Source of the DNA: an uncultured Acidimicrobiia bacterium
GTDB lineage: Bacteria > Acidobacteriota > Terriglobia > Versatilivoradales > Versatilivoraceae
NCBI GenBank assembly: GCA_963786955.1
Contig: CAWBAT010000005.1
Coordinates: 704,001 to 768,000 of the forward strand
Direction: 5' to 3'
Length of the DNA: 64,000 nucleotides
The notes under the pieces are model-generated. The model was not told the origin of the DNA and did no database searches. It saw only the letters and a program-made list of their open reading frames with translations. Shown here piece by piece: positions 1 through 7,519 of the stretch (its first letter is position 1; each line of letters begins with the position of its first letter). The translations under genes were made by a program, and so were the position numbers.

Positions 1-213
1 AAAGCCCTGTACGAATCCTTGTGTGAGACAGTACATCTTAGCTTGGGGCCACGAAACTGTCCCTGCAGCAAAATACAGGATGACACTCTCTTACCTCTTC
101 ACGGACCAACACACTAGATTTGGATGTTTAGCTCGCGCCCGAGCACAAAAATTCACTAGCCACAAGGCTTCCTCGGGATCATTTCTGCTTGCATAAATCC
201 CTTTCTAGATCAG

Positions 214-290
214 GTCTTCGCGGCATTTGGCTCATGAAAGAGAAATGAGATAAAGGTGAACGGTGCCACACTCAAATAGGTTGAATCTTT
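214..290 (+). repeat. Degenerate, truncated copy of the Rhs-cassette leader repeat
   Basis: gtcttcg..ctcatgaaagagaaatgaga..tgccacactcaa..ttgaat aligns by eye with 517-597 and 3646-3718. Confidence 0.6.
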
Positions 291-490
291 ACTGTAGGTC
301 CTTTGATCAACATTTAGGGGACATCTGTCTCCCGTTAATTTCTCCTAGTTATTACTCAAGCTATTGTAAGTTGCAATCCCCTGCTGCCCAGACAGGGCGT
401 TATAGTCTCTAATCATGGCTTGGTCAACTTGTCCATGCTGGTTCACTTGCTGTTGCTCGATTCCAAGTTGTCGGCGCCGTTGGAGCGCGC

Positions 491-712
491 GTGGCGAAGA
501 CATGCGCTCTTTGCATGTCTTCGAATCAGTTGACTCATGAAAGAGAAATGTGGGAAAAGAAGAATCGGGCATTGCCGCTCTTAAAAGTTTGAATTCTCGC
601 CTTTCCTTAAAGCTTGGCATCTATCCTACTAAATAGAATAGTCTGTCATTCATTCCAATTCGCTCTTCCTTTTTCTTGTCGCAGAGAAAGGCGTAACCGG
701 CAATCAGCCGCT
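491..712 (+). repeat. Rhs-cassette leader repeat copy 1 (GTGG-tagged hairpin plus ~190 bp conserved non-coding DNA)
   Basis: GTGG then a perfect 11-bp stem CGAAGACATGC(495-505)/GCATGTCTTCG(513-523); the rest aligns with 1219-1429, 3620-3830 and 4949-5159. Confidence 0.85.
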
Positions 713-1165
713 GCCACTCAAGACAATGGGCAGATTACCGAATTTATCGATTCGGTTGCCGGGCAGACAGTCGATTACACCTACGACAGTTTGAATCGTT
801 TGATAGCGGCCAGCACGACCGGGTCCCAGTGGGGTTTGAGCTTCAGCTATGACGGATTTGGAAACCGTTTGAGCCAAACGGTAACGAAGGGATCTGCTCC
901 GGCTAGCTCGCTCGCGATTAATCCAGCTACCAACCGGATCAGCTCGACCGGCTACGGGTACGATGCGAATGGCAACTTGACGACCATGCCGAGTGGCACT
1001 TCAAGCCTCACGCTCAGTTATGATGTGGAGAATCGGCTGGCACAGGCCAGTACCACATCAATGACCAATCGTTTCGGATATGATCTGGACAATCGTCAGG
1101 TCTATACCAACACAACTGGTTCGACAGTTGAATCCATTATCTTTTACGGAGCCTTTGGGGAACGG
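713..1165 (+). pseudogene. Orphan Rhs/YD-repeat core fragment, truncated at both ends
   Basis: ATQDNGQI..YTYDSLNRL..FSYDGFGNRL..YDANGNL..YDVENRL; ends at YGAFGER where GGGGTCAC begins; the annotated TTG start at 614 lies inside the non-coding repeat. Confidence 0.85.
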
Positions 1166-1620
1166 GACTGGGGTCACATCTTTCCTTTTTCCAAAAACGA
1201 GCGTGGAAGGGGCCGCGGGTGGCGAAGACATGCGCCCTTTGCATTTCTTCGAAGAAGCTGCATCATAAAAGAGGAATGAGAGAACAGAAAAAGCTGCCCC
1301 ACTAAAGAGATTGAAATCTCGCCTTAAAGCATGGCATCTATCCTAATTAATTGAATACTCTGTCATTCATTCCATTTCGCTTTTTCTTATGCTTGTCTCT
1401 GAGAATGGCATAACCGGCCATCATCTGTTGCCACTCAAAACAACGGGCAGATCAGCCTGACGATTGACTCGGTATCAGGAGAGACTATTGATTACACCTA
1501 CGACAGCCTGAACCGGCTGATCACGAGCGCTACCCAGGGACCGCAGTGGGGCCTATCATTCAGCTATGATGGATTCGGGAACCGCTTGAGTCAGACGGTG
1601 ACGAAGGGATCCGGGCCGAG
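812..1620 (+). repeat. 809-bp near-identical direct repeat, copy A (copy B at 4542-5350)
   Basis: Line-by-line identity at offset 3730; only 2 mismatches seen (853, 856). Confidence 0.95.
1219..1429 (+). repeat. Rhs-cassette leader repeat copy 2
   Basis: GTGGCGAAGACATGC..GCATTTCTTCG hairpin plus conserved body, joining the Rhs frame at gcc act caa aac (1430). Confidence 0.85.
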
Positions 1621-2854
1621 TAATAGTTTGATCGTCAACGCGGCCACGAATCGAATCGCTTCGTCCTATTATAGCTACGATTCCAATGGGAATCTTGTCA
1701 CCATGCCTTACGGGACCGGCTATACAACGCTGAGCTACGACATCGAGAATCGGCTGATCCAGGCCACAAATACAAACGGGACAGAAACATATGCTTACGG
1801 GCCGGATAACCGGAGGGTGTATCAGAAGATGGCCAGTGGGACGGAATTGGTGTTCTTTTACGGGGTCAATGGGGATCGATTGAGGACGTATCAGCTTCAG
1901 TGGATGAACGGCTTTTCTGTGACGAACACGAACATCTATTTTGCCGGAAGATTGATCTCTGCGAACAACGGACCCATCCGCCTTGACCGATTAGGCTCAG
2001 TTCGAAACTGGTCGCGCTACTACCCGTTTGGAGAAGAGCAAGGGTCTGGGTATATTCCAGAAAAGTTCGCCACCTACTACCGCGACACCTCGACCAGTCT
2101 CGACTACGCCATGAACCGGTACTACGGAAGCACCATGGGACGGTTCACGACGCCCGATCCGTATGGCGGAAGTGCTAATCTAGAGAATCCTCAGAGTTGG
2201 AATCGGTATGCGTATGTCAACAATGATCCAGTCAATAACAACGACCCTACAGGGCTCTTTCTCCCTGGAACCCCTTTTGATGATTCATTGAGTTATTTCG
2301 AGTTGTGGTGGGTATATAACAACCCTATGAGTCGCCAATTTGCATTTCCCGGAGGCGGATCTCAGCCACCTCCACGTCTTTTCAAAGATCTTCTTGTATA
2401 TGGTGCTGCCAACTTAATTTACAAGAAAAAATGTGGAGACTTCTTGGTGAGCGTAGGGCAGAAGGCCTTTTTGGATGTAGTCGGCAAGTCGAGTGTTAAT
2501 GAATTAAATTCTGCCGAGCGAACATACTATGATGCCATCACTACGACCAACCTCAAGGGACGGCTTCAGGGTGCGTCATTCTATGATAAGCATCGCCCAG
2601 AAGAGGATCAGTATAAGAACATCGTTCGTGCTCGCTCTGACTACGGTATCGATGGAACCGGTCAGTCTATATCTTTCTTCGACGCGTTCATTGGACAAAG
2701 TACCACAGAACAGTCCCAAATAGTAGTACATGAGAGTATGCATTTGATCAACGCCGTAAGCGACTCCAATCTAGCAAGGGGCGCCGGCGTCTATAAGGGG
2801 GATAAAAGTGCATCGGAAGATTTTCAAACAGAACTTAAAAAGCATTGCAAATAA
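1430..2854 (+). CDS. Orphan Rhs core plus C-terminal toxin tip with HExxH (putative zinc metallopeptidase); lacks its N-terminus
   Basis: Frame open from ATQNNGQI at 1430, first start codon TTG 1586; YD repeats, RYY..GRF..PDP and NRYAYVNNDPVNNNDPTGL core end; ~198-aa tip with HESMH at 2729-2743. Confidence 0.85.
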   Translation, partial: ATQNNGQISLTIDSVSGETIDYTYDSLNRLITSATQGPQWGLSFSYDGFGNRLSQTVTKGSGPSNSLIVNAATNRIASSYYSYDSNGNLVTMPYGTGYTTLSYDIENRLIQATNTNGTETYAYGPDNRRVYQKMASGTELVFFYGVNGDRLRTYQLQWMNGFSVTNTNIYFAGRLISANNGPIRLDRLGSVRNWSRYYPFGEEQGSGYIPEKFATYYRDTSTSLDYAMNRYYGSTMGRFTTPDPYGGSANLENPQSWNRYAYVNNDPVNNNDPTGLFLPGTPFDDSLSYFELWWVYNNPMSRQFAFPGGGSQPPPRLFKDLLVYGAANLIYKKKCGDFLVSVGQKAFLDVVGKSSVNELNSAERTYYDAITTTNLKGRLQGASFYDKHRPEEDQYKNIVRARSDYGIDGTGQSISFFDAFIGQSTTEQSQIVVHESMHLINAVSDSNLARGAGVYKGDKSASEDFQTELKKHCK

Positions 2855-3272
2855 ACTTTTCTTATTTTCCAGCTTCGTCATATTGGCATTCGCAGTATCC
2901 GTACAAGGTCAGGTTGAAGAACCTTTGAGGGTTTCTTACTTCATTTCACCTGAATATCCGCGTCTAGCGAGACAGGCCATGATGTCAGGCGACGTCGTGC
3001 TGACAGTGACAGTTGATGCCACAGGCACACCTAAAGATATCGTTTTCAAGGCTCCGTACCCATTGCTGGGCGAATATGCCAAGGAAGCTGTTTCCAAATG
3101 GCGATTTAATCCTGTTTCTCCTCCTTCTACACGTAAGGGATTCGTTTTCATCCACTACAGTTTTTCCGGCACGACTCGTGACTGTGACCCCAGCACAGTA
3201 GTGGCTGCCGACTTAGAAAATCTGCGGGTAATTGTAACTGTCGATCCGCGCCGTCCTTCTGACTCGGAATGA
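2808..3272 (+). CDS. Secreted TonB C-terminal-domain protein in the immunity-gene position
   Basis: Signal-like NKLFLFSSFVILAFAVSVQG; PEYPRLARQAMMSGDVVLTVTVDATG..AKEAVSKWRFNP matches the TonB_C pattern; overlaps the toxin stop; start codon uncertain. Confidence 0.75.
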   Translation: MHRKIFKQNLKSIANKLFLFSSFVILAFAVSVQGQVEEPLRVSYFISPEYPRLARQAMMSGDVVLTVTVDATGTPKDIVFKAPYPLLGEYAKEAVSKWRFNPVSPPSTRKGFVFIHYSFSGTTRDCDPSTVVAADLENLRVIVTVDPRRPSDSE

Positions 3273-3460
3273 CCGAGAGGCGTTTCCAGCATCAAGGAGA
3301 TTTCACAAGAGTCAAAAGAGATTTGAAGTCAATTTCGGGGTTAATTATTCAGCATCTTATATAGTAAAGCTCAGTGCAATCGAGCCATTTTGGAGAATTA
3401 AGGATGACAACTACTTTTATCTTATTTTTTCTGCGATTACTACTCCTTGGCGGTACCAAA

Positions 3461-3597
3461 GCGAGGTCGGACCAAGCAAGATCCTTGTTGGATGCGGAAC
3501 GGGTGTGATTTTAGAGGTATTTTTCGGCCTTAGAAATTCTTTTTTGGGTGCAAAAACGGGCTTTTAACAAAATGTCTCTGCGCGGAGCAGCATAAGC
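3461..3597 (+). repeat. 137-bp direct repeat copy A (copy B at 3881-4017), starting G(A/G)GGTCGGACC
   Basis: Clear alignment at offset 420; each copy lies just upstream of a GTRG hairpin. Confidence 0.9.
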
Positions 3598-3619
3598 TTA
3601 AGAGAGGCTCACACGGCGG

Positions 3620-3830
3620 GTAGCGAAGATATGCGTCGTTTGCATGTCTTTGAAGAAGCTGACTCATGACAGAAAAATGAGAGAACAGAAAAGGCTGCCA
3701 CACTCAAGAGATTGAATTTCCGCCGTAAAGCTTGCCATCTTCCCTAATTGATTGAATACACTGTCATTCATACCAGTTCTCTTCTCCTTATTCTTGGCTC
3801 TGAGAAAGTTAAAACGAGCAATCAGCCGCT
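3620..3830 (+). repeat. Rhs-cassette leader repeat copy 3 (GTAG-tagged)
   Basis: GTAGCGAAGATATGC..GCATGTCTTTG plus conserved body; joins gcc act caa aac aac ggg cag atc at 3831. Confidence 0.85.
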
Positions 3831-3875
3831 GCCACTCAAAACAACGGGCAGATCAGCCAATCGATTGACTCGGTG
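3831..3875 (+). pseudogene. 15-codon Rhs remnant (ATQNNGQISQSIDSV)
   Basis: Homologous to 1430-1474; cut off by the 137-bp repeat at 3881. Confidence 0.75.
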
Positions 3876-3880
3876 CACAA

Positions 3881-4017
3881 GCGGGGTCGGACCAAGCAAG
3901 ATCCTTGCTGGATGCGGAAGAGGTGTACTTTTAGAGGTATTTTTCGGCCTTAGAAGTCCTTTTTGGGCCGCTAAAACGGGCTTTTAACAAAATGTCTCTG
4001 CGCGGAGCAGCATAAGC
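3881..4017 (+). repeat. 137-bp direct repeat copy B
   Basis: Aligns with 3461-3597. Confidence 0.9.
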
Positions 4018-4018
4018 C

Positions 4019-4229
4019 GGGTGGCGAAGACATGCGTCCTTTGCATGTCTTCGAGGCAGTTGGTTCATGAAAGAGAAATGAGAGGATAGAGAATAGCACG
4101 GCACATGAAAGATATAATCTTTGCAAAAAGTTTCATGATCAATGTTCAGCGGTAGAATGTTCACCCGTTACTATTGTTTTGCTTTACCAATTGAATCGAA
4201 GACATCGCAAAACGATGTCTTCGCCACCC
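4019..4229. repeat. REPIN/BIME-like doublet: two inverted GTGG-tagged hairpins
   Basis: GGGTGGCGAAGACATGC..GCATGTCTTCG (4019-4053) and inverted CGAAGACATCG..CGATGTCTTCGCCACCC (4197-4229). Confidence 0.8.
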
Positions 4230-4250
4230 ACGAAAAGTGGGGTCGGGACG

Positions 4251-4500
4251 AACAGGTCGTTCCTGACGGAGCTAAGAAATCTTCAACGACACTCCGTTCT
4301 ATAAACAGGTCGCCGCGCTGCGGCTTCGCCTAGAATGACAACAGCCGCGGACCCACATATCGGGTCCGCGCTACGCTAGGGAAAAGCCACAGAGTCAAAA
4401 TCAGCTCTGCGATTCCCACTACGTGCTGGCTCCGTAGGAGCCTCCGGTCTATAGTAACCAGGAGCCACTGGTCTTGAAAGCTCCAGAGGAGCGGCCTGTA
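4251..4500. repeat. Composite REP-like element (2 forward and 2 inverted units) with a nested GTAG REP at ~4343-4374
   Basis: acaggtcgttcctgacggagct / ttctataaacaggtcgccgcgctgcggct / ggctccgtaggagcc..tatag / agctccagaggagcggcctgt; same layout at 62446-62636. Confidence 0.7.
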
Positions 4501-4541
4501 GGCTCAGATCCAACTTCTCAATGCATTTCCCTAAAAGCAAG

Positions 4542-4895
4542 AGCACGACCGGGTCCCAGTGGGGTTTGAGCTTCAGCTATGATGGTTTTGGAAACCGTTT
4601 GAGCCAAACGGTAACGAAGGGATCTGCTCCGGCTAGCTCGCTCGCGATTAATCCAGCTACCAACCGGATCAGCTCGACCGGCTACGGGTACGATGCGAAT
4701 GGCAACTTGACGACCATGCCGAGTGGCACTTCAAGCCTCACGCTCAGTTATGATGTGGAGAATCGGCTGGCACAGGCCAGTACCACATCAATGACCAATC
4801 GTTTCGGATATGATCTGGACAATCGTCAGGTCTATACCAACACAACTGGTTCGACAGTTGAATCCATTATCTTTTACGGAGCCTTTGGGGAACGG
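4542..4895 (+). pseudogene. Orphan Rhs core fragment (duplicate of 812-1165)
   Basis: Same translation STTGSQWGLSFSYDGFGNRL..YGAFGER. Confidence 0.85.
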
Positions 4896-4948
4896 GACTG
4901 GGGTCACATCTTTCCTTTTTCCAAAAACGAGCGTGGAAGGGGCCGCGG

Positions 4949-5159
4949 GTGGCGAAGACATGCGCCCTTTGCATTTCTTCGAAGAAGCTGCATCATAAAA
5001 GAGGAATGAGAGAACAGAAAAAGCTGCCCCACTAAAGAGATTGAAATCTCGCCTTAAAGCATGGCATCTATCCTAATTAATTGAATACTCTGTCATTCAT
5101 TCCATTTCGCTTTTTCTTATGCTTGTCTCTGAGAATGGCATAACCGGCCATCATCTGTT
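4949..5159 (+). repeat. Rhs-cassette leader repeat copy 4 (identical to copy 2)
   Basis: Part of the 809-bp duplication. Confidence 0.85.
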
Positions 5160-5430
5160 GCCACTCAAAACAACGGGCAGATCAGCCTGACGATTGACTC
5201 GGTATCAGGAGAGACTATTGATTACACCTACGACAGCCTGAACCGGCTGATCACGAGCGCTACCCAGGGACCGCAGTGGGGCCTATCATTCAGCTATGAT
5301 GGATTCGGGAACCGCTTGAGTCAGACGGTGACGAAGGGATCCGGGCCGAGCAACAGTTTGAGCGTCAACACTGCCACGAATCGAATCAAAATGAGCGGGT
5401 ATTCCTACTTTCCCAATGGAAATCTAGTTC
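5160..5430 (+). pseudogene. Orphan Rhs core fragment ending at YFPNGNLV
   Basis: ATQNNGQI..SQTVTKGSGPSNSLSVNTATNRI..NGNLV, after which Rhs similarity is lost. Confidence 0.8.
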
Positions 5431-5486
5431 CGCCAATCCCCTTCGCCAGTACTGACGATCAAGTTACCAACTTCGCCCACGCAAGA

Positions 5487-6602
5487 CTAGAAGGTCACCT
5501 GCACAAAGCGGAACAAACCTAATCCAATGAGTCCGACCGAGAGTAGACGGAAAAGCTGTTGGGAATTAGGATGCGCGCTGAGCCGCCTCAAAATGGCGAA
5601 TGTCAGAAAGCTCACTAAAGCCATCACAATCGCCAAACCCAATTGAAAAGACAGTAATGAAAGAATCATCCCTTTTCTGGGATAGCCAATGCTCCGAGCC
5701 AGATCTGAATAGCTCAGTCCATAGATAATGCCCAGAAAACCCGCAATAGCCCCTCGATATCGGATCTTCTTGATGAGCACATTTTCAGCTGCAACATAGG
5801 CGACGCTCAATGGAATTGCTGAATGGACAAATCGAACCGACAAGATTGGCCCGTGCCAGGTGTCGTAGGAGAATGCGGCCGCTTGACCCAAAAAGGACAT
5901 CGCCACGACGATCCCTAGGCCTCCCCAAGTGGGTTCTATCAAGATCAATCCCAGGAGGAAGGCCGCAGATTCGGGAGTCGAAAAGTACTCTTTGATTGAA
6001 TAAGTGCATGATCGCCATGCCAGCTTGAAGTAGCTTCTCGTTTCCCGTCGCAGTTCGACTCGGCCCTCCGGCGTCTCCAAGTTGAAATAGCGTTGCTCCT
6101 CAACACCATCGTAATGAATGCGGGCAAGGTCCCAATGCCCTGAATCAGTGAGCGAATGCAGTGTTACCCGAAAAACAACATCCTCCAAAGGTCTTTAAAT
6201 GCATAAATCAGGTGGCAACGGAGCTCCCCTTTCTGGGGGTTGAAATTCACTTCTGCCAATCCTTCCCTGTCCTCCCTCTCCACTTCCAAAGATCCGAAAC
6301 TGTTCCAATAGCTGTGGTGCAATTAACCGAATCTCGGCTAGAACTTCCTCCTCCGTGATGAGCAAGTCGTTATTGCGATCGAACTGCCGCGCAAACTTTA
6401 GTTCGCGCAAATTGAATTGAAGCCAGACTGCAATTTCCTGCTTTCCAATTTCGATCTCTGCATAACTGACACCCGTCATATGCGCAGCGGACGACAGCGT
6501 AAAGAGAGGAATCAGGAGGCAAATCCAGACGAGGAAGGCGGCCCTTCGACCCTTCAGGCTCTTGAGGAAAGCGGAGGGATGAAGATCAATCCATATCATC
6601 AC
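5487..6602 (-). CDS. HupE/UreJ-like membrane protein with an N-terminal exported domain (frameshifted near 6190-6270)
   Basis: Signal peptide then AHMTGVSYAEI; C-terminal multi-TM domain with LSVAYVAAENVL, GIIYGLSYS and FQLG aligning to HupE_UreJ_2 motifs. Confidence 0.6.
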
Positions 6603-6734
6603 TGGGAATGATAAGAACGCTTTGGATGTGGTGAAAAAACGATTTCGATTCGAGTTAAAGGGGCCGCTGTGGTCTTTCCCGATGAAGGCCGAATTGGTGA
6701 ACCCATCAGTCCAGCAGATTGGTGCCCACCAGAT

Positions 6735-7519
6735 TCACGGTTGGCTCCGATCTCGAATAGCAGCCATCATCGAGTCGTGAATCAATCCGTTACTGGCGAG
6801 AAGTTCATCTCCATAGATCGAATAGTCCCTTCCCATGGAAATCCGTAACGGTCCCGCCTGCTTCGAGCACGATCAGGAACCCAGCTGCAGAATCCCAAGG
6901 CTTCAGTTTCCGTTCCCAAAATCCATCGGTACGGCCCATCGCCAAGTAGCACAGGTCCAGCGCCGCAGATCCATCACGCCGGACTCCTTGGGCTGTTTTC
7001 ATGAAACTCGTGAAATAGCTCATGGCATCTTCGAGATTTTTGAAAAGCTCATAGGGGAAACCCGTGGAAATTAATGCCTGCCGAAGTTTGTCCACTTGAG
7101 AAACTTGAATTTTTCTGCCATTTAGATAGGCTCCATTCCCCTTTTCCGCGACAAATAGTTCTTCGCTCACAGGATTGTAGATGACCCCCACGATGAGCTG
7201 CCCGTTCTGCTCCAAAGCCACCGAAACACCAAAAAGAGGATAATCATGCGCATAGTTGGTCGTCCCATCCAGGGGATCGATAACCCATCTGAAACTCCTC
7301 GGATCGCTGTATTTCCGTGCCCTCTTCAGCAAGGATAGAATGATGCGGAAATCGCGAATTAAGCCATTCCACAATTAACTTTTCCGAGCGTTTATCGACT
7401 TGAGTCACAAGATCAATCTCAGCTTTGTACTCGATTTCTTTGGCTTTTCCGTAATATTGCCTGAGAACATCTCCTCCTATTTTGGCGGCTTCAACAGCGA
7501 CTTCAAGGTAGTCTCGCAT
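6735..7519 (-). CDS. suhB: Inositol monophosphatase family protein (frameshifted)
   Basis: DLVTQVDK, ILAEEG, WVIDPLDGTTNYAH, GSAALDLCY, KPWDSAAG, LASNGLIH across frames. Confidence 0.9.

Follow-up and report, generated by a model that had tools for sequence, protein, structure and literature searches.

A strain-specific island of orphan Rhs cassettes joined at one codon to a leader of repeat origin

The bacterial genome analyzed here carries, downstream of its nuo operon, an 8.26-kb island (G000:C5:701204-709462, where G000 is the assembly, 93% complete in 9 contigs, and C5 the contig with the window) that is strain-specific and holds orphan Rhs C-terminal cassettes behind a non-coding leader of repeat origin; all of the Rhs cassettes lie within it. 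The window, i.e. the whole 64,000-nucleotide stretch that was analyzed, includes the part of the island at 1..5462 (+). We favor, with a probability of roughly 55%, the reading that a single REP/MITE-Rhs fusion was amplified and that homologous recombination, with a conserved block as its anchor, exchanged its Rhs alleles; most likely, then, the arrangement reflects ordinary recombination of a single fusion rather than a dedicated cassette machine.

The leader head, GTRGCGAAGAYATGCG (≤2 mismatches), has 5 matches in the window, where shuffles predict 0.06; they lie at 491, 1219, 3620, 4021 and 4949 and share the + strand. The junction, GCCACTCAARACAAYGGGCAGAT, occurs at 713, 1430, 3831 and 5160 (4 found, 0 expected). 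Together these positions give head-to-junction distances of 222/211/211/211 nt, bearing out the claim of an earlier note that four full leaders, at 491, 1219, 3620 and 4949, are joined to the same Rhs codon at these spacings; the junction codon common to all leaders is the A of ATQ/RNNGQI. A fifth full leader (leader 0) is located 2.26 kb upstream of the window at C5:701744-701958, with its junction 215 nt from the head at C5:701959. Within the window, leader 1 occupies 491..712 (+; REP hairpin 491-523), leader 2 1219..1429 (+; REP hairpin 1219-1251), leader 3 3620..3830 (+; REP hairpin 3620-3652, with a GTAG head) and leader 4 4949..5159 (+), which is identical to leader 2 (211/211). Window 4542-5387 is a duplicate of 812-1657, 99.2% identical over 846 nt, so the leader at 4949 is not independent and the leaders reduce to three lineages: A (leader 0 and 491), B (1219, the same as 4949) and C (3620). 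Leader identity is 82-86% between A and B, 76-79% between A and C and 80% between B and C (JC 0.16-0.24), and the island-specific tail, shared without indels, and the junction are common to 5/5 leaders.

It was likewise confirmed that the Rhs cassettes arrayed here are orphans, lacking the 5' part of the gene; three are further truncated, and the two complete ones each carry a toxin tip followed by a small ORF. Cassette 0, after the junction at C5:701959 upstream of the window, is a 515-aa ORF followed by a 166-aa ORF. Cassette 1 (allele A, 713..1164, +) is an Rhs fragment 97% identical to cassette 0 that ends after ...GAFGER; with its leader, 491-1164 corresponds to C5:701744-702410 at 94.4%. 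Cassette 2 (allele B, 1430..2854, +) has an Rhs shell of 278 codons, ending in DPTGL at ~2243-2257, and then a 196-aa tip with an HExxH motif. The end of this toxin ORF is overlapped by a 154-aa ORF (2808..3272, +) with a signal-like N-terminus and a TonB_C match (PF03544, E 5e-11), a putative immunity gene by its position; the 166-aa ORF behind cassette 0 stands at the same expected immunity position. Cassette 3 is a 45-nt Rhs stub (3831..3875, +), 41/45 identical to allele B and followed by the second copy of a dispersed repeat, D6. A duplicate of the 3' part of cassette 1 (4542..4948, +, equal to 812-1218) precedes leader 4, and cassette 5 (5160..5462, +), a duplicate of the start of allele B, matches cassette 2 to 5387 and is unrelated thereafter. 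Both cassettes 0 and 2 match PF05593 and TIGR03696 (50.7 and 62.8 bits, respectively), and DPSGL/DPTGL motifs mark the Rhs-associated core before the variable tip. The part of the island upstream of the window also holds a lipoprotein-like ORF.

Relatives of these cassettes read on upstream as ...NMQYVYS followed by ATQNNGQI, so the N-terminal Rhs part is missing from the orphans. In cassettes 2, 3 and 5 the Rhs frame meets stops within the leader, and no ATG/GTG/TTG precedes codon 53; in cassette 2 none occurs from the leader's last in-frame stop to 1586. Cassettes 0 and 1 are the exception, their frame extending without a stop to a TTG inside the leader. The G000 assembly yielded no cognate full-length rhs gene; its sole full-length Rhs (1,986 aa, C5:1374316-1380276) lies 670 kb away and is 30% identical. 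Because this assembly is 93% complete and in 9 contigs, a main rhs gene, or a RAYT, could have escaped assembly.

Leftward, the island extends 2,796 nt beyond the start of the window, to the 5' edge of a half REP; rightward, it stops at window 5462, inside a truncated Rhs fragment. When the syntenic site was compared in the two other genomes of the genus (G001 and G002), the island was absent from both: in G002, with flanks 88-95% identical, nuoI is followed by 31 unrelated nt and a hupE-like gene, and in G001 the hupE-like gene comes ~220 nt after nuoI.

The leader is a composite. It opens with a ~35-nt copy of a GT(A/G)G-headed REP that recurs throughout the genome; this is a genuine REP, as the earlier note had held, with a 12-bp hairpin stem and a pattern that gives 64 matches (~60 copies) across 7 contigs, 7 of them inside the island, the loci checked being intergenic. 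The following 70-95 nt correspond to internal sequence of a REP-doublet MITE, and the final 85-100 nt are confined to the island. Both the REP and the opening 70-130 nt of the leader have copies across the genome that show no Rhs association; the MITE-left part (70-130 nt) is present between genes, in ordinary intergenic sequence, at C6:399 kb, C4:166 kb, C4:170 kb and C4:784 kb, and also in G002. Full leaders, in contrast, are limited to C5:701744-709182 in a whole-genome search of G000, and none was found in 60 relatives, 30 genomes of the family or 400 of the class (0/60, 0/30, 0/400), or, by exact pattern, in metagenome contigs. Searching the genome and its relatives, as the note had suggested, thus yields a 5' part that is widespread and a full leader that is known from one island.

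Other repeats surround the leaders. The partial leaders reported at 214 and 4021 do exist, but they are copies of the REP-doublet MITE and not truncated leaders: 211..342 (+) is a degenerate copy that lacks the REP 5' arm (211-300 resembles C6:399586-399494, and 282-342 resembles C4:784845-784906), and 4018..4232 (+) is a complete, REPIN-like one, with a left REP at 4021-4051 (+) and an inverted variant REP at 4199-4227 (-). The region 4018-4329 matches C6:399612-399272, its REPs lying at C5:708021 (+) and C5:708199-708227 (-); the inverted doublet, a REPIN-type unit, is present both at 4018-4232 and at C6:399367-399609. The ~49 nt preceding leader 2 (1170..1218, +) precede the REP at two unrelated loci too and belong to a repeat family, not to Rhs; 1170-1287 matches C4:170000-169887 (79.7%) and C4:784707-784820. 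One D6 copy (3451..3597, +) lies immediately upstream of leader 3 and is 90% identical to the second (3871..4017, +), with further copies at C4:548976-549112 and C4:551174-551338. A patch of other dispersed repeats fills 4235..4541 (+); examples of its copies, at C3:282017-282091, C8:321109-321182 and C9:203355-203420, adjoin Y1-transposase genes (C3:281497-281841, C8:320546-320901 and C9:203666-204010).

Rhs alleles A and B are 61-62% identical, with codon-position identities of 0.70/0.75/0.40, a dN of 0.31 and saturated dS. The allele B protein is 78% identical to a G001 allele that continues upstream as Rhs, and ~60% identical to allele A. Set against leaders that are 76-86% identical, these values indicate that the alleles are far older than the leader copies, on a time scale that rests on the third positions of two genes, nuoH and nuoI. 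The simpler alternative offered in the earlier note, one ancestral fusion amplified by duplication with neutral decay, is by itself a poor fit to this disparity.

The junction falls at the 5' boundary of the best-conserved stretch in this Rhs clade (...YxYS-ATQNNGQITQ...) and abuts an amino-acid block that is near-invariant among 68 unique metagenomic alleles; related clades keep xTxNNGN, and nucleotide identity over the block is 92-100% between otherwise diverged contigs. Same-clade orphans in other organisms break 0-40 codons upstream of this stretch without any REP; individually, orphan L116 breaks at 0-1 codon from it, the G001 orphan L080 starts at VTSNNGN, and others break at about 7-46 codons. 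We infer that the leader sequence may have fused once, by chance, to an Rhs fragment at the point where the conserved stretch begins; leader plus block, ~240 nt, would then have acted as a portable direct repeat, between copies of which unequal homologous recombination would have duplicated and deleted cassettes, and a crossover within the block would have brought a different and much older Rhs allele into place behind the same leader. The fixed junction, on this best reading, follows from inheritance together with recombination anchored in the block, and not from any site-specific cleavage at the REP. Recombination between repeats is visible in the island, in the recent 846-nt duplication and in leader 1, which is 82% identical to leader 0 in its 5' part and 97% elsewhere, the 5' part resembling other MITE copies. 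Against this reading, the allele-swap crossover would have to fall within a conserved block of ~25-35 nt, a short target for RecA-type recombination when the DNAs have diverged, and, as the leader lineages number only three and the long Rhs alleles two, the argument rests on one event. In addition, the start of every cassette, and that of the island itself, coincides exactly with a REP 5' edge, for which recombination accounts only if the founding unit began there.

A leader divergence (K 0.16-0.24) below the dN of 0.31 in the adjacent Rhs (where dS is saturated) is equally expected under purifying selection on a functional leader, whether as a promoter/5' UTR for transcripts that would run across each cassette into its immunity gene or as a homology arm for a RecA cassette store, with whole leader-headed cassettes being acquired as units. 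We consider this rather unlikely. A weak sigma-70-like pair, [TA]TG[GC]CA-17-AATA[GC][TA], stands at the same position in all leaders (above the scan threshold only in leader 1 and read off the alignment in the others), and published work describes enterobacterial orphan immunity genes as expressed and orphan rhs elements as able to be expressed alone (PMC3150448, PMC7043789). However, substitutions are spread evenly along the leader with no outstanding block; covariation is absent (term +1.12 kcal/mol, a compensatory change in 1/45 pairs); promoter-like sites are not enriched (3 against a shuffle mean of 6.0); an Rfam search of the leader gave no match; the 5' half is an ordinary MITE; and it would be surprising for a conserved functional module to be absent from the other genomes and metagenomes searched. 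A model in which one ancestral leader-Rhs unit was simply duplicated in tandem, with neutral decay and no allele exchange, is improbable: it would explain the junction and leader tail that every copy shares, and one duplication is demonstrably recent, but leaders at 76-86% identity stand beside Rhs third positions at 40%, the codon-position pattern indicates selection on the protein, and allele B is nearer to another species' allele than to allele A. It is already contradicted unless gene conversion was frequent and confined to the leaders.

The earlier note had proposed instead that the REP defines the breakpoint and that a RAYT, or another enzyme of the HUH Y1 type, works in trans, cutting at the REP foot and storing or moving leader-plus-tip units. 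RAYTs recognize the GTAG head. In favor of the proposal, the architecture of the leader head, GT(A/G)G with a 12-bp stem, is that of a REP; all five cassettes and the left edge of the island start at a REP 5' edge; the sister genome G002 encodes a 169-aa protein with HUH and Y motifs between two REPs of the leader's family; and the empty site in both G001 and G002 indicates that the island arrived as a unit. RAYT-driven mobilization is nevertheless unsupported and, in our judgment, very improbable. None of 20 Y1-transposase loci examined in G000 has this REP within 1.5 kb, and the REP-flanked RAYT is deleted from the syntenic site in G000 (C4:139135-139232), where only the two REPs are left; the closest G000 paralogues are 54-56% identical and carry other REPs. 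The RAYT with the same hairpin that the note had called for is thus present in G002 and missing from G000. No right-hand inverted REP was found in any of the five leaders, each of which has a single REP, and neither a right-end hairpin nor copies outside the island were found to make an IS200/IS605-type unit of this 5' hairpin. On the right the island ends in a broken Rhs fragment and not in a hairpin, metagenome contigs aligned to the island give no informative joint, and a breakpoint found elsewhere without a REP, together with a REP and 70-130 nt found genome-wide without Rhs, argues against the REP as what defines it.

Among known systems, the closest likeness is to the enterobacterial orphan rhs-CT/rhsI and cdiA-CT/cdiI arrays, which passages of Poole et al. 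(2011, PMC3150448) describe as 5'-truncated tips in tandem that keep part of the upstream core, most without translation start signals and each with a small ORF behind it, and thought to be exchanged onto full-length genes via the retained homology. The island shares the truncated tips, retained core, small downstream ORF and tandem order. It differs in having no cognate full-length rhs upstream or in the G000 assembly, in one breakpoint and one non-coding leader in place of ragged ends, and in a long core (278 codons) that begins at the ATQNNGQI block and not near DPxGL. Like the Bacteroidales rAID-1 clusters, which have an adjacent XerD-family recombinase, and integrons, which have an integrase (bioRxiv 10.1101/471110), it arrays toxin-defence cassettes with repetitive intergenic sequences between them. 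Unlike them, it has no recombinase in or near it: no tyrosine recombinase is found among the island ORFs or within 500 kb on the contig, the nearest there of 11 PF00589 matches in the genome being at C5:166830, >500 kb off. Unlike rAID-1, its cassettes are toxin fragments with ORFs and not immunity genes alone.

The leader head resembles REP/REPIN elements (PMC3116915, PMC3337134) in being a GT(A/G)G-headed palindrome with ~60 dispersed copies, some in inverted doublets, and a RAYT with the same REP in a sister species; unlike a REPIN, the leader has one REP and is found nowhere else, and the cognate RAYT is missing from G000. According to a title cited in PMC10210955, porA was deleted between REP clusters in Neisseria. 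In enterobacteria, tandem duplications and deletions arise through recombination between REP copies. The island, whose join points are inferred from where homology starts, would resemble such REP-mediated duplications and deletions in using short dispersed palindromes as join points and in having rearranged units that start exactly at a REP.

The array of orphan Rhs cassettes, each headed by a non-coding leader that begins with a REP (a palindrome with a GT(A/G)G head) and joins an Rhs frame at one fixed codon, is real, and the earlier note described it accurately: the head motif, GTRGCGAAGAYATGCG, has 5 matches in the window (491, 1219, 3620, 4021 and 4949) against 0.06 expected, the junction string, GCCACTCAARACAAYGGGCAGAT, has 4 (713, 1430, 3831 and 5160) against 0 expected, and the head-to-junction distances of 222, 211, 211 and 211 nt are reproduced from the motif positions. 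The head folds as a 12-bp hairpin. Upstream of the window, the same contig carries a fifth full leader, which starts at C5:701744 and meets Rhs at C5:701959. Since window positions 4542-5387 are a 99.2% copy of 812-1657 (846 nt), leader 4949 is a recent duplicate of leader 1219, and there are thus three independent leader lineages: A (the upstream copy and 491), B (1219, the same as 4949) and C (3620), the last with only 45 nt of Rhs sequence behind it. The leader was rejected as coding sequence; in lineages B and C it is interrupted by two to three in-frame stops at matching places and has no start codon ahead of the junction, and only in lineage A, where both TGA codons of B and C read AGA, is the frame open back to a TTG within the leader. 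From this TTG it runs into the Rhs fragment (window 614-1279, and L039:15860-17407 in the island region, the latter giving the 515 aa of cassette 0); the chance opening of 35 codons has a probability of about 1 in 5, so that the open frame may be meaningless.

Two of the Rhs fragments have complete 3' ends: cassette 0, upstream of the window, has a 515-aa ORF with an overlapping ORF of 166 aa after it, and in cassette 2, inside the window, 278 codons of Rhs lead to DPTGL and to a 196-aa tip containing HExxH, after which comes an ORF of 154 aa with TonB_C; cassettes 1, 3 and 5 are truncated. The cassette 2 protein finds six places in the genome, five being the island's own fragments and the sixth a 1,986-aa Rhs protein 670 kb away with 30% identity. 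TIGR03696 has 3 matches in the genome and PF05593 has 11, all within the same six places, and the nuo operon upstream of the island (nuoD to nuoI) is without an rhs gene. The cassettes are therefore orphans, as had been supposed, while the full-length rhs gene that the earlier note proposed to look for has no cognate representative in the assembly, which comprises 9 contigs and is 93% complete. Behind the cassette 2 tip, where an immunity gene would be expected, the ORF at 2808-3272 combines an N-terminus resembling a signal sequence with a C-terminal TonB domain (PF03544, E 5e-11); such a fold would be unusual in an Rhs immunity protein, for which this ORF is a candidate. The island's first 540 nt, before the first leader (L039:15204-15743, i.e. 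C5:701204-701743), hold a lipoprotein-like ORF with a signal peptide and Cys and with no Pfam match, which may be the leftover immunity gene of a lost cassette.

The island, C5:701204-709462 (8,259 nt), is confined to the source genome, G000, since the two other genomes of the genus have empty sites. In the sister genome G002, whose nuoH and nuoI are 95% identical, nuoI is followed by 31 unrelated nucleotides and then by a hupE-like gene, the gene that stands from window 5463 onward in G000; in G001 (77-81% identical) the same hupE-like gene comes after nuoI. G001 also carries the nuoH-nuoI segment in two copies. On its left the island starts at the 5' boundary of a half REP, and on its right it stops within the broken cassette 5; G+C content gives no signal (0.487 in the island vs 0.493 and 0.496 in the flanks). 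No relative of the island Rhs fragments was detected in G002 at E <= 1e-5, and G001 has 15 matches to them, at other loci. Because the island is missing from both of these genomes, the array probably diversified elsewhere and came as a block, as judged with a rough clock.

A comparison of the leaders with the Rhs alleles behind them bears on the order of events. The leaders are 82-86% identical between lineages A and B, 76-79% between A and C and 80% between B and C (JC distances 0.16-0.24), and the island-specific 97 nt of the leader are 81-82% identical between A and B, with no indels. The first 450 nt of Rhs are 61-62% identical between allele A (cassettes 0 and 1) and allele B (cassette 2), with identities of 0.70, 0.75 and 0.40 at codon positions 1, 2 and 3, a dN of 0.31 and saturated dS; third positions of nuoH and nuoI agree at 0.88-0.89 between G000 and G002 and at 0.42-0.52 between G000 and G001. 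The allele B protein is 78% identical to a G001 allele and about 60% identical to allele A, and this nearest G001 allele goes on as Rhs upstream of the junction (...SLNMQYVYS, then ATQNNGQI). Given the divergence of A from B and the closeness of B to the G001 allele, the two alleles date back at least to the origin of the genus and were working protein genes while they diverged; by these distances, the copies of the leader are much younger than the Rhs alleles and somewhat older than the G000-G002 split.

The position of the junction was examined with an alignment of allele A, allele B and the G001 allele, which fetched 80 metagenome loci and 32 genome loci, the latter mostly Terriglobia or Bryobacterales MAGs. 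The stretch ...Y-x-Y-S-A-T-Q-N-N-G-Q-I-T-Q (window 1430-1459) is near-invariant in 68 unique alleles while its surroundings vary, an invariance that is partly by construction because the loci were retrieved with this motif as a search pattern; in other Rhs clades of G001 the equivalent position reads xTxNNGN. The block DNA is 92-100% identical between contigs diverged elsewhere, and its synonymous sites are conserved no more than neighbouring conserved codons, so that amino-acid invariance and codon bias explain the identity, and nothing points to selection acting on the block at the DNA level. The majority of the fetched loci continue as Rhs upstream of the block. In the orphan-like loci, with distances read by eye from translations in an upstream view of 80-90 codons, the break falls about 0-1 codon upstream of the block in L116, 7-11 codons upstream in L103, L118, L136/L138, L154, L161, L184 and L203, 14 codons upstream in L079 of G001, about 20-25 codons upstream in L108 and L126, and about 31-46 codons upstream in L125/L167, L111, L107 and L180; a G001 orphan from another Rhs clade (L080:1205-2898, on G001:C72) is a 488-aa ORF with a GTG start exactly at VTSNNGN. 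Identical duplicates excepted, no two of the orphan-like loci have a leader in common. Since orphans elsewhere break at or just before the block, such a break recurs without any REP, and what is peculiar to G000 is a uniform break accompanying a shared leader. Our findings suggest that the exchangeable Rhs module starts about 280 codons before DPxGL in this Terriglobia-type Rhs clade; the block, with the pile-up of orphan breaks just upstream in many metagenomic relatives, is a candidate recombination anchor that can be tested. Ahead of the L080 orphan stands a 76-aa remnant that weakly resembles a DnaA_C-type HTH (E 0.006, under the Pfam cut-off).

The leader head belongs to a REP family: its hairpin pattern occurs at 64 places, spread over seven contigs, and the island accounts for 7 of the 64. 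Together with the 70-95 nt that follow it, the head matches elements at C6:399 kb, C4:166 kb, C4:170 kb and C4:784 kb, as well as elements in G002; several of the matching elements are inverted REP doublets of 207-390 nt, and they sit between ordinary genes. The partial leader copies reported at 214 and 4021 are likewise real, but they are MITE copies of the REP-doublet kind and not leaders. The last 85-100 nt of the leader have no match outside the island; in a shuffle test, the last ~100 nt resemble the MITE interior marginally in lineage A, whose score is reached by 2-5 of 300 shuffles, and not at all in lineages B and C. Relatives had been named as a place to look for the leader, and the full leader occurs in none of 60 relatives, 30 genomes of the family and 400 of the class; leader tail plus junction, searched as an exact pattern that misses diverged copies, has 0 matches in metagenome contigs.

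None of the 21 matches to Y1_Tnp (PF01797) in the G000 genome falls in the window, in agreement with the earlier note, and none of the 20 Y1 loci examined has the leader's REP within 1.5 kb, as the RAYT (REP-associated Y1/HUH transposase) gene that it envisaged elsewhere in the genome would have; the locus at C7:33168-33659 has a different flanking REP, GTAGCGCAGACC.... G002 has a 169-aa ORF with tyrosine and HUH (HWH) motifs (L222:1297-1806, minus strand), bracketed by two REPs of the family to which the leader's head belongs (L222:1089-2020). The flanks of this site map to G000:C4:138342-140318, where there are two REPs only, ~67 nt apart, and no RAYT-like gene (C4:139135-139232, outside the window); the closest G000 paralogues of the G002 protein are 54-56% identical and have other REPs beside them. 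Since the gene is present in G002 and the G000 site has the REPs alone, a RAYT with the leader's REP exists in the genus and not in the G000 assembly, and the two genomes form a natural RAYT-loss pair, in which the question of whether RAYTs ever mobilise passenger DNA could be addressed. The contig carries no tyrosine recombinase within 500 kb.

In window 1-7000, Rfam gave a single noise match at E <= 1 (TMV_UPD-PK3, E 0.11) and no match to any intron, guide-RNA or riboswitch family; the 3' half of a group II intron with trans-spliced tips, and an omega-RNA-like right end, were therefore rejected as readings. RNAalifold on the four distinct leaders gave the REP hairpin alone as solid, with no covariation, and a promoter/terminator scan found no enrichment over shuffles. 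A search of sequencing runs listed 13 as containing the sequence, each with a small share (at most 0.14) and none of those listed an RNA run. Metagenome contigs from four of these runs (likeness >= 80) cover the island as short pieces from this or related organisms and say nothing on cassette order; one extends upstream of the junction as Rhs (...YLNMQYIYSA), and two joints, 1518>2198 and 4519>5322 (one run, side <= 30), are probably from other organisms.

We favor, with a probability of roughly 55%, a joint account of fusion, amplification by unequal homologous recombination and crossover in the block. A single repeat-derived sequence would have been joined, at the edge of the conserved block, to a fragment of Rhs; the ~240 nt of leader and block would then form a direct repeat whose copies gain and lose cassettes through unequal homologous recombination, and a crossover inside the block would bring a different allele, itself old, behind this leader. 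Recombination traffic is indicated by the 846-nt duplication and by the MITE-like sequence that replaces part of the 5' portion of leader 1. Several old alleles can come to share a non-coding repeat as a uniform "handle", mimicking a site-specific cassette system; if this ordinary reading alone holds, the finding is a well-documented curiosity. Neutral decay after one ancestral fusion, the simpler alternative in the earlier note, cannot give the divergence pattern of leaders and Rhs; plain duplication with such decay would do so solely with leader-limited gene conversion added, and in that form we consider it improbable. Selection keeping the leader as a promoter or homology arm would fit the low leader divergence, but substitutions are evenly spread along the leader, covariation and promoter enrichment are missing and the leader is absent elsewhere, and we judge this explanation unlikely.

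The mechanism first proposed, a REP-defined breakpoint with a RAYT acting in trans, is consistent with cassette and island boundaries at REP edges and with the G002 RAYT flanked by the same REP family; the enzyme is missing from G000, however, there is no right end and there are no copies elsewhere, which leaves it without support and, in our estimate, quite improbable. This mechanism, unsupported, and its simplest alternative, insufficient, both fall short. It is a long shot that the island was an HUH-driven store, in which a RAYT resembling that of G002 would have cut the REP foot and moved or stacked units of leader, Rhs tip and immunity gene as single strands; if this were true, the leader would have been joined to incoming alleles at the ATQNNGQI block, and the array would be an integron-like polymorphic-toxin system built on a domesticated REP/RAYT pair and frozen here by enzyme loss.

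Orphan toxin-tip arrays are regarded as stores of interbacterial weapons and immunities, and to our knowledge the entry, keeping and exit of orphan fragments are known mainly from Enterobacteria. The island works like the orphan rhs-CT/rhsI arrays of PMC3150448, except that the main rhs gene which usually accompanies them is lacking. The leader head is one REP of a family, but the leader itself is not a REPIN. The rAID-1 and integron arrays (10.1101/471110) share with the island solely the repeated inter-cassette DNA, and they have a recombinase, unlike the island. No description of REP-headed Rhs orphans was found in the literature searched.

Other repeats accompany the array. Window 4235-4541 belongs to a second dispersed-repeat family, copies of which lie within ~250 nt of three Y1-transposase genes (C3:281497, C8:320546 and C9:203666) and which is probably the REP family of these RAYTs. 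A 147-nt repeat (90% identical) stands at 3451-3597 and 3871-4017, immediately 5' of leader 3 and of the REP-doublet MITE, with more copies at C4:548976-549112 and C4:551174-551338. The 5.65-Mb G000 genome has at least three distinct GT(A/G)G-headed REP families.
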